The notes under the pieces were generated by a model. The model saw only the letters and a program-made list of their open reading frames with translations, searched no databases and was not told the DNA's origin. From a virus: 15,902 nucleotides of DNA. The translations under genes and the position numbers were made by a program. Positions 8,782 through 15,774 of the stretch are shown here, piece after piece. The stretch spans positions 1-15,902 of the IMG/VR virus record IMGVR_UViG_3300045988_117751; one strand, given 5' to 3'. The stretch's first letter is position 1, and each line of letters starts with the position of its first letter.

Positions 8782-9135
8782 TTACTCACCTTCTTTCGTA
8801 ATGGAGCTGATGTGAAACAGCGACATAAGTTTTTCCGGTAAAAGGTCTGGATTGATTTTGCTGATATTCTCCAAAATAGAGACCAGCTCTGTAGTGCAAG
8901 CATAGAATACTATAATAGGAAGAATTAAAAAATCCAAGTGTATTCCAGCGATAGCACCGTAGTTGTCAATAATCCATGCCAGAAAATAACAGAACATGAA
9001 GCCAACTTTTTTAAAGAGACCGTCCCTTAATTTAGAGGACTGGATTTCCTTGTTTTTAATAGCTGAAATAAATCCTGTGCACAAGTCTAGTGCGTTGAAT
9101 CCAAGAGCTACTAAAATCGGAGTAAGCTGATTCAT
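8782..9135 (-). CDS. Holin (phage_holin_4_1 / TcdE-like, three predicted TM helices)
   Basis: 117 aa with three hydrophobic segments and the family-typical LDLxTGxxxAxKNKEIxSxKxRxGxxKK motif. ATG at 9135 with RBS GGGGGT. It is the first gene after the promoter. Confidence 0.85.
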   Translation of the reverse strand: MNQLTPILVALGFNALDLCTGFISAIKNKEIQSSKLRDGLFKKVGFMFCYFLAWIIDNYGAIAGIHLDFLILPIIVFYACTTELVSILENISKINPDLLPEKLMSLFHISSITKEGE

Positions 9136-9164: not shown

Positions 9165-9193
9165 ATTATAAAATAAGGGTTGACAAAAGTCAA
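9165..9193 (-). promoter_or_regulatory. Near-consensus sigma-70-type promoter for the lysis and structural operon
   Basis: On the minus strand: TTGACT (9193-9188), a 17-nt spacer, then TATAAT (9170-9165). It lies about 30 nt upstream of the holin ATG. Confidence 0.7.
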
Positions 9194-9208
9194 GTTATAT
9201 ATTAAACT
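9180..9208 (+). promoter_or_regulatory. Divergent promoter for the packaging ATPase
   Basis: On the plus strand: TTGACA (9180-9185), a 17-nt spacer, then TAAACT (9203-9208). Its -35 forms the palindrome TTGACAAAAGTCAA with the -35 of the opposing promoter. Confidence 0.5.
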
Positions 9209-9211
9209 AAT

Positions 9212-9284
9212 TAATAAGTAGTAATAAGTATTTCTTATAAGTGCTTATAAGTGTAACTTATTAATAACATTTTATTTATAAGTG
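9212..9284. repeat. Phased array of short repeats (consensus TWATAAGTR), likely regulator binding sites
   Basis: TAATAAGTA at 9212 and 9222. CTTATAAGTG at 9234 and 9244 in tandem, each containing the palindrome CTTATAAG. An inverted copy ACTTATTA at 9256. TTATAAGTG at 9276. The first four copies are spaced by 10, 13 and 10 bp. Confidence 0.6.
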
Positions 9285-9294
9285 GGTGAAATAG

Positions 9295-10323
9295 ATGTTT
9301 TATGACGGTACAAAGTTATTAAGCTTAAAAGATTTAAACGGTAACCAGCCAGAAATTTATATGTGTACTTCAAACCGAAGCGGCGGAAAGACTACATACT
9401 TTAGCAGACTGTTAGTAAATCGGTTTATCAAATATAGAGAAAAATTTGGACTGATATATAGATACAATTATGAGTTGGATGATGTTGCTGATAAGTTTTT
9501 TAAGGATATTGGCGAGCTGTTCTTCACAGGTTATGAAATGGAAAGTAAAAGAAGGGCAAATGGAATCTTTCATGAGCTATTTTTAAACGGAGAACCCTGT
9601 GGATATGCTGTAACTTTAAATAGTGCTGATACCATAAAGAAGTATAGTCATTTCTTTTCTGATATACAGCGACTTTTGTTTGACGAATTTCAGAGTGAAA
9701 CTAATCACTATTGCACCGATGAAGTTAAGAAGTTTATTAGCGTGCACACTACTATTGCAAGAGGACAGGGAAAACAGACAAGATATGTACCTGTATTCAT
9801 GTGTTCAAACCCTGTAAGTATTATCAATCCATACTATGTTAACATGGGTATAAGCTCTAGGCTTCAAGAGTCAACTAAATTCCTTAAAGGAAATGGCTTT
9901 GTATTAGAGCAAGGCTTTAACGAGAGTGCTAGCAAAGCTCAGACTGAAAGCCAATTTAATCAGGCTTTTGCTAATAATGAGTATGTTGCTTATAGTAGTC
10001 AGGCTGTATACTTGAATGATAATAAGGCGTTTATTGAAAAGCCTGTGGGGAATAGCAGATATATAGCTACGCTAAAATATAAGGGATGCAATTTTGCTGT
10101 AAGGGAATACACAGAAAGCGGCTACTTGTATTGTGACGATAGGGCGGATATGACATTTCCCACTAAAATTGTTGTTACTTGCGATGACCATAGTATTAAC
10201 TATGTGATGCTTAAAAGAAATGACTTTATGATTGCAAATTTCAGATATCTTTTTGAGCGTGGATGCTTTCGATTTAAAGATTTAAGATGTAAAGAAGCTA
10301 TATTGACAGCATTAAGCTATTGA
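9295..10323 (+). CDS. DNA packaging (encapsidation) ATPase, gp16-like
   Basis: 342 aa, against ~330 aa for phi29 gp16. Walker A NRSGGKTT and Walker B RLLFDEF. It is the only convincing plus-strand gene. Confidence 0.85.
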   Translation: MFYDGTKLLSLKDLNGNQPEIYMCTSNRSGGKTTYFSRLLVNRFIKYREKFGLIYRYNYELDDVADKFFKDIGELFFTGYEMESKRRANGIFHELFLNGEPCGYAVTLNSADTIKKYSHFFSDIQRLLFDEFQSETNHYCTDEVKKFISVHTTIARGQGKQTRYVPVFMCSNPVSIINPYYVNMGISSRLQESTKFLKGNGFVLEQGFNESASKAQTESQFNQAFANNEYVAYSSQAVYLNDNKAFIEKPVGNSRYIATLKYKGCNFAVREYTESGYLYCDDRADMTFPTKIVVTCDDHSINYVMLKRNDFMIANFRYLFERGCFRFKDLRCKEAILTALSY

Positions 10324-10435
10324 TATCTTCCAACGTTTGTTAACTTGAGTTGTATAGGAGTGCACTGGTTAAATGTCCAGCCTATAAACTGTCGTTGTTG
10401 CGGAACGCTTGCTTAACTTCGTTGGTTATAGATAT
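10323..10435 (+). ncRNA. Candidate structured RNA (possible pRNA analogue or ATPase 3' UTR element); strand not established
   Basis: An interrupted long-range helix closes the segment. ATATCT (10323-10328) pairs with AGATAT (10430-10435), CCAACG (10330-10335) with CGTTGG (10420-10425), and GTTAA (10339-10343) with TTAAC (10413-10417). An internal hairpin has TATAGG (10353-10358) pairing with CCTATA (10381-10386), and CTGG with CCAG inside it. No ORF is present. Confidence 0.3.
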
Positions 10436-10436
10436 A

Positions 10437-10482
10437 GAAAGCCCTGTATGAAACAATCGTATGATTGCCATACAGGGCTTTT
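10437..10482. terminator. Bidirectional rho-independent terminator shared by the ATPase gene and the replication operon
   Basis: A 10-bp stem, GCCCTGTATG (10441-10450) with CATACAGGGC (10469-10478), is flanked by AAA upstream and TTTT downstream. It therefore reads as a hairpin plus U tract on both strands, between convergent genes. Confidence 0.8.
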
Positions 10483-10487
10483 GTTAA

Positions 10488-10814
10488 TTAAAGAGTGTTA
10501 ACGTACCACTTATATTCATTTTTATCATCATTAATGATTGAAACAATTTCACCATCATATGGATATAACCTTTCTGCTATCATATCATAATTAGGTGAAC
10601 CTGTAATATATTCGGGTACTTCATTAATATAAAGGACAAGTTTTCTTTTCATGCACATCTTCACAATATTGTTATGAACTTCCTCATCTGATAATACTGT
10701 TGGCTCTTCTGGTTTATTCATACACATATCTGGGTAAGTGTTAGCAATGCACTGAGTACCATAAATACAATTTAATAATATCTTTGCTTCTTCTAATGTC
10801 AAATTAATTTTCAT
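10488..10814 (-). CDS. Hypothetical protein (last gene of the replication operon; gene-1 position)
   Basis: 108 aa. ATG at 10814 with RBS AAGGGGAA 7 nt upstream. No motif recognised. Confidence 0.65.
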   Translation of the reverse strand: MKINLTLEEAKILLNCIYGTQCIANTYPDMCMNKPEEPTVLSDEEVHNNIVKMCMKRKLVLYINEVPEYITGSPNYDMIAERLYPYDGEIVSIINDDKNEYKWYVNTL

Positions 10815-10837: not shown

Positions 10838-10857
10838 AATGTTTCATGTGAAACATT
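10838..10857. promoter_or_regulatory. 20-bp perfect palindrome AATGTTTCA-TG-TGAAACATT overlapping the DNA polymerase stop codon
   Basis: 9-bp arms with a 2-nt centre. The core GTTTCA-NN-TGAAAC recurs at 13382-13395. Confidence 0.4.
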
Positions 10858-14057: not shown

Positions 14058-14360
14058 TTAGTCCTGTGCGTTTTCGTCTGTTTCTGTTTTTGTTCTTGGC
14101 GGTAACTTTTCCGCCAGCTCGATAAAGTTCTGCTCTGTCATACCGTAAAGAGTTTCCACGATTTCTGTAGAAATAACTTTTACGGGAATGAGCGTTGCAT
14201 CCATTGTTTCCTTAACTGCCTTAAGTAATTTGCTGTCGTCTGTGTAAGTGCGTGGCACTTCAACCACCTGTGTTACTGTTTCCTCTGCTACTGTGTTCAC
14301 GCAAAGAATCGTTGCTTTTGTTGTTGTGACTGTTCTTGTCACCATTGGTTTTCTTGCCAT
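14058..14360 (-). CDS. Small DNA-binding protein (p6-like histone-like protein), tentative
   Basis: 100 aa from the ATG at 14360 (RBS AGGAGA 10 nt upstream). It is the first ORF of the replication operon, as gene 6 is in phi29. The C-terminal tail is acidic (TKTETDENAQD). TRTVTTTKATI and LYGMTEQNFIELA loosely resemble my recollection of p6. The ORF-track start at 14462 is rejected. Confidence 0.45.
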   Translation of the reverse strand: MARKPMVTRTVTTTKATILCVNTVAEETVTQVVEVPRTYTDDSKLLKAVKETMDATLIPVKVISTEIVETLYGMTEQNFIELAEKLPPRTKTETDENAQD

Positions 14361-14425
14361 TTGGGAGTGGTCTCCTTTCTTAATTTGATTTTTGTTTAGT
14401 TGTTTCGGCTTATGCCAGACTACTG

Positions 14426-14481
14426 TCACGCTACGACACCGGGAGCGAACTGAGATTTTCAAAATTTCGGGTGTAGCGTGA
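14426..14481 (-). other. Long stem-loop immediately 3' of the tRNA
   Basis: TCACGCTAC (14426-14434) pairs with GTAGCGTGA (14473-14481). The stem extends by ACC/GGT across a 3-nt bulge, and an inner AT-rich hairpin is present. It starts 1 nt after the tRNA discriminator base. No U tract follows. Confidence 0.35.
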
Positions 14482-14482
14482 A

Positions 14483-14555
14483 TGGACTATACAGGAGTTG
14501 AACCTGTGACTAAGCGTTTATGAGACGCTTGCTCTGCCTACTGAGCTAATAGTCC
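14483..14555 (-). tRNA. tRNA with anticodon CAT (elongator Met or lysidine-dependent Ile2)
   Basis: Hand-folded 73-nt cloverleaf. Acceptor GGACTAT/ATAGTCC, D stem GCTC/GAGC, anticodon stem AGCGT/ACGCT, loop CT-CAT-AA, variable loop TAGTC, T stem ACAGG/CCTGT with loop TTCAACT, discriminator A. No encoded CCA. G1-C72 is paired and there are no three consecutive G-C pairs at the base of the anticodon stem, so it is not an initiator. Confidence 0.9.
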
Positions 14556-14821: not shown

Positions 14822-14998
14822 TTATGGAAATTGAATTTCCGTATCTGAGTCTGCCTCTGGAGGATAATTATCCCCTTCTATTACCTGAAATGGGTAGCGC
14901 TTAAATTGTCTATAATATGCGTCACATACCTTATCATGCATGCATTCTCTGCATGTTCTACATAAATAGCAAATTATAACTAATTCTTTACTTTTCAT
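14822..14998 (-). CDS. Hypothetical 58-aa Cys-rich protein (C-x2-C-x2-C-x2-C-x5-C)
   Basis: Below the ORF-track cut-off. RBS AGGAGA lies 6 nt before the ATG at 14998. Translates to MKSKELVIICYLCRTCRECMHDKVCDAYYRQFKRYPFQVIEGDNYPPEADSDTEIQFP. Confidence 0.5.
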   Translation of the reverse strand: MKSKELVIICYLCRTCRECMHDKVCDAYYRQFKRYPFQVIEGDNYPPEADSDTEIQFP

Positions 14999-15745: not shown

Positions 15746-15774
15746 ATAATAACACATGTGTACCTATATGTCAA
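15746..15774 (-). promoter_or_regulatory. Right-end early promoter
   Basis: On the minus strand: TTGACA (15774-15769), a 17-nt spacer ending in TGT (extended -10 type), then TATTAT (15751-15746). Confidence 0.7.

Follow-up and report, generated by a model that had tools for sequence, protein, structure and literature searches.

What do two divergent promoters and an adjoining array of short repeats control at the junction between the holin and packaging ATPase genes of a phi29-like gut phage? We addressed this question in the IMG/VR virus record IMGVR_UViG_3300045988_117751 (hereafter the window), which is complete at 15,902 bp and carries inverted terminal repeats. By its gene content the window was a phi29-like podovirus, encoding a connector (PF05352), a tail lysozyme, a holin, a phi29-type single-stranded DNA-binding protein (SSB; PF17427), a family-B polymerase and a p6-like double-stranded DNA (dsDNA)-binding protein, together with a terminal-protein-like gene. 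Of the protein genes, that of the packaging ATPase alone was on the plus strand, and all others lay on the minus strand. Its closest named relatives were the Clostridium symbiosum phages CS229P1-3, in which gene order was identical to that of the window; a review places CS229P1 among gut phi29-like phages and does not mention its promoters (PMC11476376). We propose that the two promoters of the window cross each other, and that the neighbouring repeats form an operator array for a sequence-specific dimeric protein, a reading that we judge, taken as a whole, to be evenly poised between right and wrong.

An earlier note on this DNA had described a minus-strand promoter of the form TTGACT-17-TATAAT and a plus-strand promoter of the form TTGACA-17-TAAACT, with 2 nt between their -35 hexamers. 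Both promoters and the 2-nt gap were found in the window (Table 1), and the joint sequence of the two hexamers read TTGACAAAAGTCAA. The promoters did not merely abut but crossed, each -35 box sitting within the spacer of the other. Scored against the consensus, the minus-strand promoter matched at 11/12 positions and the plus-strand promoter at 10/12, both with spacers of 17 bp. The genome held four promoter matches of at least 11/12, compared to 0.72 expected from 300 dinucleotide shuffles (P = 0.007), and a crossed pair of such a kind was expected only 0.01 times per genome from dinucleotide shuffles. It is very likely that the divergent, overlapping elements at 9165-9208 are two genuine promoters of the host sigma-A type. 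From its predicted start site, the leftward transcript would have a leader of about 23 nt, in which a Shine-Dalgarno sequence, AAGGGGGT (9149-9142), precedes the holin ATG at 9135. RNA polymerase bound at a promoter covers approximately positions -55 to +20. Since footprints of this size at the two start sites would overlap almost completely, the promoters should compete for polymerase, and the earlier suggestion that two polymerases exclude one another here agrees with what is known of such footprints. We infer that mutual exclusion at the crossed pair is probable.

GenBank and IMG/VR yielded 83 relatives (ATPase identities 68-98%) in which the same arrangement was sought; with the window they made 84 sequences, or 18 lineages that were <85% identical after dereplication. 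A crossed pair scoring at least 20/24, with both spacers fixed at 17 bp, was present in 78 of the 84 sequences, and the isolated phage CS229P1 carried an identical TTGACAAAAGTCAA. The segment spanning both -35 boxes was mostly 14 bp (62 sequences) or 15 bp (12 sequences) long; in the others it measured 12, 16 or 17 bp. Across the 18 lineages the conserved columns read ATTATAnCA ... TTGAnA-nn-nnTCAA ... TGnTATAAT, with freely varying spacers. As these columns correspond to the -10, extended -10 and -35 elements, comparative evidence argues that both promoters are real. The offset between the promoters slid from 6 to 11 bp while each spacer stayed at 17 bp, and five lineages (L002, L070, L029 and L022/L027) had their promoters fully apart with both retained. 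Sliding offset, fixed spacers and separated lineages together point to constraint on two promoters rather than on one palindromic operator. On this comparison, the crossed -35 core is old and belongs to the family as a whole. It was not found in Clostridium phage HM2, the next named relative, which shared 38% ATPase identity and had a co-directional ATPase gene. Only the window lineage among the 18 lacked the TGn extension at both promoters; the loss coincides with the presence of the repeat array, a correlation drawn from a single lineage only. In one of the lineages with separated promoters (L002, MT835854), the two lay 83 bp apart, and the insert held, at 8884-8924, a perfect 21-bp palindrome, TAATAGACAC-A-GTGTCTATTA, with a second related copy 20 bp upstream of the first. 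These palindromes look like an independent and different operator at the same locus, and no helix-turn-helix (HTH) protein was found among the early proteins of this phage.

Next to the rightward promoter, the earlier note had reported six copies of a 9-bp motif, TWATAAGTR. Five copies were exact (at 9212, 9222, 9235, 9245 and 9276), and the sixth (9255-9263, TAATAAGTT on the minus strand) was inverted and carried one mismatch. No exact copies occurred elsewhere in the 15.9 kb, and the two tandem pairs with a 10-bp period and the palindrome CTTATAAG, also described there, were both present. When the 86-nt leader was shuffled with its dinucleotides preserved, a hexamer present at least six times arose in only 27 of 20,000 shuffles (P ~0.0014). 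The units are, in our view, better read as six imperfect 10-bp palindromes with consensus ACTTATAAGT, which each putative site (S1 to S6; Table 1) matched at 8 or 9 of 10 positions. All three matches to ACTTATAAGT with one mismatch in the genome fell within the array. The first five sites were spaced 10-13-10-13 bp. Relative to the predicted starts, S2 to S6 lay at +10 to +64 of the ATPase transcript, and the array as a whole spanned -56 to -120 of the late (leftward) transcript. A scan of IMG/VR for pairs of the motif returned more than 118 chance matches and two unrelated perfect microsatellites, and was uninformative.

A metagenome scan added three members of the window lineage and two contigs of a sister clade (L206 and L207; 80-81% ATPase identity). 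Positions 1-297 of the 7-kb L206 contig hold, by eye, what we take to be an RluD/S4-domain-like gene stretch fused within the promoter core; the contig is probably a chimeric low-coverage assembly. Positions 1-45 of the 1.9-kb L207 contig are presumably Illumina adapter, and the left ends of both contigs were unfit for use. Repeats were kept in the window lineage and in the sister clade, and the array was found in no other clade. Conservation was compared among six window-lineage genomes. In the holin and ATPase genes, 57 of 129 four-fold degenerate sites were invariant; against these stood 58 of 76 leader columns (P = 1e-5) and 32 of 36 columns in the ATAAGT cores (P = 1e-6). Within the leader, core columns were more conserved than non-core columns (P = 0.017). 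The leader of L206, whose ATPase was 81% identical, aligned collinearly with that of the window and had five sites centred at +6.5, +16.5, +29.5, +39.5 and +52.5 from the -10 box, the same centres and 10-13-10-13-bp spacing as in the window. The well-kept half-site was the left one (ACTTA) in L206 and the right one (TAAGT) in the window. Such turnover of half-sites at fixed centres favours a two-fold symmetric site in dsDNA over a single-stranded RNA motif. Inversion of the array in L206 was rejected, because the direct collinear alignment scored higher (74 versus 62 locally; 124 globally). Strict helical phasing was not relied on, as five genomes shared one phase but L004 was shifted by 7 bp. 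Further duplications of about 30 bp were seen in the leaders of L004 and L204. Leader repeats peculiar to other clades were rejected by a shuffle test, with only L010/L011 marginal (P 0.04-0.08). Since the core is family-wide and the repeats are lineage-specific, the two features are separable, and as most relatives work without an array, the basic design does not depend on one.

What each promoter serves was read from gene content. The leftward unit ran from the holin through a peptidoglycan-binding protein and a tail lysin to the virion genes. Rightward, the ATPase gene was followed by a structured RNA resembling a prohead RNA (pRNA), with TATCT and AGATA pairing as the closing helix around two hairpins, and with compensatory changes at 20 of 25 predicted pairs among 30 relatives. 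It had no match in Rfam. The RNA is probably the prohead-RNA equivalent of the family, co-transcribed with the ATPase. Replication and early genes were read from far-right promoters at 15774 and 14664, and by their gene content both divergent units carry late or morphogenetic functions. The promoter at 14664-14636 was perfect (TTGACA-17-TGnTATAAT) and had behind it a full-length tRNA (14483-14555, minus strand; 69 bits). A palindrome, GTTTCA(C/T)GTGAAAC, occurred at 10838-10857 in the window, directly downstream of the ATPase gene in CS229P1 (L003; 10528-10549) and near the ATPase terminator of MT835854 (~10175-10200); its presence in all three makes it a recurrent motif of the family.

Table 1. 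Coordinates of the crossed promoters, putative repeat sites and flanking features in the window
Feature	Position	Strand	Remarks
Leftward -10, TATAAT	9165-9170	-	No TGn extension in the window lineage; ATTATA(nCA) columns kept in 18 dereplicated lineages
Leftward -35, TTGACT	9188-9193	-	Inside the spacer of the rightward promoter
Rightward -35, TTGACA	9180-9185	+	Inside the spacer of the leftward promoter
Rightward -10, TAAACT	9203-9208	+	TAAAAT in the five closest relatives
Predicted leftward start site	9158	-	7 nt past the -10 hexamer; read from sequence
Predicted rightward start site	9215	+	~57 bp from the leftward start; read from sequence
S1, ATTAATAAGT	9210-9219		8/10 to ACTTATAAGT; centre at the predicted start of the ATPase transcript and at -56.5 relative to the late promoter
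S2, AGTAATAAGT	9220-9229		8/10 to ACTTATAAGT
S3, TCTTATAAGT	9233-9242		9/10 to ACTTATAAGT; least conserved copy in close relatives
S4, GCTTATAAGT	9243-9252		9/10 to ACTTATAAGT
S5, ACTTATTAAT	9256-9265		8/10 to ACTTATAAGT; the inverted copy of the earlier note
S6, ATTTATAAGT	9274-9283		9/10 to ACTTATAAGT; abuts the ATPase Shine-Dalgarno sequence GGGTGA (9284-9289)
Holin (Phage_holin_4_1), first leftward gene	8782-9135	-	E = 2.7e-18
Packaging ATPase (Podovirus_Gp16, PF05894)	9295-10323	+	E = 5.5e-29; same synteny in CS229P1
Structured pRNA-like RNA, ~115 nt	10324-10437	+	Directly past the ATPase stop codon
Hairpin terminator	10441-10485	+	Follows the pRNA-like RNA

We postulate that the crossed pair would divide polymerase between the leftward unit of holin, lysis and virion genes and the rightward unit of ATPase and pRNA-like RNA. 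Competition between overlapping promoters matters when they are strong (PMC12825309), and as both crossed promoters are strong it would be expected here. The window lineage gained six palindromes in the ATPase leader, and the extended -10 TGn was lost from both promoters; the palindromes may together form an operator to which a dimeric protein, recognising their sequence, binds cooperatively. As S1 lies on the ATPase start site and the other sites lie downstream, occupancy of the array would shut the packaging promoter; as the promoters compete, it would also release the late promoter. Occupancy may also stimulate the late promoter from -56 and upstream. The proposed logic is also that of Pant/Pmnt and Mnt in phage P22 and, as experiment has shown, of Pc/Pr and Rco in pLS20 (PMC4207663). 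That the array is a DNA-protein operator shutting the one promoter and releasing the other has, in our estimate from sequence, close to an even chance of being correct.

An alternative explanation is that the p6-like protein encoded by the phage itself nucleates on the array, from which it would coat and bend the promoter region without sequence-specific recognition. The candidate is the product of p134, an open reading frame at 14058-14462 on the minus strand, called as 134 aa from a TTG; the protein probably starts at the methionine at 14360 and has about 100 aa (14058-14360). Its p6-like identity is supported by a match to PHROG 6370 'dsDNA binding protein' (E = 2.4e-5) and by the family profile, for which phi29 p6 (8pw4) was the best match in the whole PDB, full-length and collinear (E = 0.031), as well as by a gene order of dsDNA-binding protein, SSB, terminal protein and polymerase, as in phi29 genes 6-5-3-2. 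The array can be divided into 23-bp units of two sites (10 + 13 bp), and the resulting mean of 11.5 bp per site is near the values for phi29 p6 (12 bp for a monomer, 24 bp for a dimer) and for GA-1 p6 (11 bp) (PMC10899789); p6 alone is also known to repress the phi29 C2 promoter (PMC10899789). However, p6 reportedly lacks sequence specificity, whereas one particular 10-mer was kept here across two clades, and the p6-like gene occurred in at least 51 relatives while the array was confined to one lineage. With the homology of p134 to p6 itself weak at E = 0.031, we consider this explanation unlikely. It is similarly improbable that the repeats act not as DNA but in the ATPase mRNA leader, where a bound protein or alternative base pairing would control how the mRNA is translated or how stable it is. 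Five of the six copies lie inside the predicted 5' untranslated region, S6 abuts the Shine-Dalgarno sequence, and the copies are mutually complementary, such that the minimum-free-energy fold pairs them together. Constraint on the leader also extended beyond the cores (26 of 40 non-core columns invariant versus 57 of 129 four-fold sites; P = 0.03). Yet the fold energy of the leader was not better than that of shuffles (z = -0.97), S1 straddles the predicted start site, so that part of it would lie outside the RNA, and no significant repeats were found in the long leaders that other clades have. At the same centres, the RNA words in L206 differed from those in the window (ACUUAU versus AUAAGU), whereas the duplex site was the same.

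A non-regulatory origin was also weighed, in which the array is AT-rich filler produced by slippage of 10- and 23-bp units, perhaps serving as a generic AT-rich upstream region for the late promoter. Absence of the array from most relatives would fit, as would the tandem 10-bp duplications that make up S1/S2 and S3/S4 and the extra ~30-bp duplications in L004 and L204, and the same word forms simple 10-bp microsatellites in unrelated viruses. Filler of this kind is nonetheless hard to square with leader columns, and cores above all, that were significantly more conserved than four-fold sites, or with five site centres that persisted at 81% ATPase identity despite many substitutions. Since the leader contains a single run of four T and lacks phased A-tracts, classical intrinsic curvature is also unlikely, and we regard the filler explanation as quite unlikely. 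Finally, the 14-bp TTGACAAAAGTCAA might itself be the operator of a dimeric regulator, instead of or besides two -35 boxes, given that it is a near-perfect palindrome kept family-wide. Its conservation, however, was limited to TTG, CAA and adjacent positions, as in -35 hexamers, with variable central bases, and the distance between its halves varied (12, 14, 15, 16 or 17 bp) while each half remained exactly 17 bp from a conserved TGnTATAAT. As five lineages separate the two promoters completely and retain both, such an operator is very improbable.

If the array is an operator, a protein must bind it, and several candidates were considered. The earlier note had stated that no p4 gene was recognisable, and a six-frame search of the complete genome with PF05464 indeed returned no match at E <= 10. 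The p4 site CTTTTT-15-AAAATG had no matches genome-wide (gap 13-17 bp), in keeping with the claim that the sequences are unrelated to those of the p4 switch. As the p6-like p134 is present and p4 was not found, the phage appears to keep p6 but not p4. There was no Spo0A box near the promoters, and we saw no match between the motif and the consensus sequences of Fur/PerR, WalR/PhoP, LytTR and CodY. The regulator had been suggested to be one of the early proteins of 93, 97, 58 or 44 aa. Profile searches across all loci for co-occurrence with the array narrowed this list: the 97- and 93-aa proteins were missing from several repeat-bearing genomes and the 58-aa protein (p58) also occurred in a repeat-less clade, leaving the 44-aa protein (p44), which co-occurred strictly. 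Both p44 and another protein, p108, were found in every array-bearing locus that covered their position, and nowhere else. Encoded by the last gene of the early operon (10488-10814, minus strand), p108 was present in 11 of 11 array-bearing loci and in no other relative. It was acidic (net charge about -7), with an invariant block, MNKPEEPTVLSDEEVHN, a confident alpha/beta C-terminal domain in its structural model and a weak match to the uracil-DNA-glycosylase-inhibitor family (PF18880, E = 0.023), and may be a DNA mimic like phi29 p56. The p108 model was only partly confident, and its structural matches were all meaningless (TM ~0.3). Within the first codons of p108 lay a promoter-like site matching at 11/12 positions (TTGACA-16-TATTAT, 10802-10775, minus strand). 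The p44 protein had a membrane helix and a basic tail. p58 (14822-14998, minus strand) belonged to a small helical family with an invariant C-x5-C-x2-C-x5-C and one to four tandem paralogues per genome; paralogues were present in L005-L008 and L206, and the family also occurred in a distant array-less clade (L054-L064). A confident AlphaFold model of the p58 family (pLDDT 90) had no structural neighbour in the PDB.

Several observations weigh against a regulated pair of this kind. Both operons are late, so that switching between them would bring no evident benefit. No DNA-binding regulator was identified, and a phage protein, the p6-like protein and a host factor are all candidates: searches of Pfam and PHROGs gave nothing for ten small early proteins, and no HTH family among them; neither p108 nor p44 resembles a classical operator-binding protein; and the predicted models of p58 and p108 had no DNA-binding structural neighbours. 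The array is confined to one lineage (11 loci) and a sister clade, so that both its conservation and its co-occurrence with p108 and p44 are phylogenetically shallow, and most relatives have none, with leaders of only 21-29 nt. The 7-bp insertion in L004 shifts the phase between the proximal and distal sites. A second site cluster was not found in any of six array-bearing genomes, and a single cluster per genome gives no sign of autoregulation or looping.

Comparison with known systems places the locus close to several of them. The earlier note had likened its layout to the early/late switch of phi29, where p4 and p6 act at promoters A2c, A2b and A3 (PMC3100819, PMC10899789). Both belong to protein-primed viruses of about 16-19 kb that encode a p6-like protein, and in both the late promoter points away from a second promoter and has repeated protein sites (here putative) upstream of it. 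The analogy to an early/late switch did not hold up, however: the partner promoter in phi29 is early, whereas that of the window drives the late ATPase and pRNA-like RNA, and the phi29 late promoter lacks a -35 box, whereas the late promoter of the window has its own. Having a good -35 box, it would need no activator, unlike A3 of phi29. The phi29 promoters are also separate while those of the window cross at their -35 boxes, and the window has neither a p4 homologue nor p4 sites. A similar layout occurs in the conjugation switch of the Bacillus subtilis plasmid pLS20, whose divergent promoters Pc and Pr overlap. There Rco binds an 8-bp motif present in 7 + 4 copies, and has been shown experimentally to repress one promoter and activate the other (PMC4207663). 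Shared features are the overlapping divergent sigma-A promoters and a short motif, lying beside or across the core, that is repeated mostly in one orientation with one copy flipped. The motifs are unrelated (8 bp in pLS20, compared to 10 bp in the window, where six constrained copies are putative sites); Rco is an Xre-type HTH protein encoded beside its promoters, whereas no such gene was found in the window; and pLS20 has a second operator 75 bp away for looping, whereas the window has a single cluster.

Pseudo-symmetrical bidirectional promoters of Escherichia coli and other prokaryotes likewise accept RNA polymerase in either orientation, with binding in one excluding the other (bioRxiv 10.1101/2020.01.31.928960; PMC12825309), and polymerase competition is documented at strong bidirectional promoters (PMC12825309). 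Those of the E. coli type differ in sharing a symmetrical -10, with starts 10, 18 or 23 bp apart (PMC12825309). In the window pair, the -35 zone is shared, the -10 boxes are separate (Table 1) and the predicted starts are about 57 bp apart. Divergent promoters also overlap in the immI region of phage P22, where the Mnt repressor, by binding over one promoter of the Pant/Pmnt pair, takes away the polymerase that competes with the other and so activates it indirectly. A ribbon-helix-helix tetramer, Mnt acts on a single operator, unlike the six-site array of the window, for which no ribbon-helix-helix candidate was found. The family may possess a distinct class of bidirectional promoter with a shared -35 zone, a full palindrome over both strands (TGnTATAAT-N14-TTGACA-NN-TGTCAA-N14-TGnTATAAT) and starts about 57 bp apart, which would serve as a built-in means of apportioning polymerase to the packaging motor (ATPase and pRNA) on one side and to virion and lysis genes on the other. 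The window lineage would have made this promoter into a regulated toggle through the cooperative array and a new, lineage-specific protein (p108, p44 or a four-cysteine, p58-type protein) standing in functionally for p4. In this full form the proposal is a speculative one, with little chance of being right in every part.

What is understood of transcription control in phi29-like phages comes, to our knowledge, almost wholly from phi29 and its proteins p4 and p6. Relatives that infect Clostridia are abundant in the gut and lack p4, and we know of nothing on how the timing or balance of late expression is set in them. A crossed promoter pair present in about 80 genomes offers a concrete design that would couple supply of the packaging motor to supply of virion and lysis proteins. 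The lineage-specific palindrome array amounts to an experiment of nature on how regulation may be acquired by a fixed pair of promoters, and gives a defined 75-bp bait with which a new phage or host regulator could be found. At 58 bp, the compact, symmetric promoter could also serve as a minimal bidirectional part for synthetic biology in Gram-positive bacteria.

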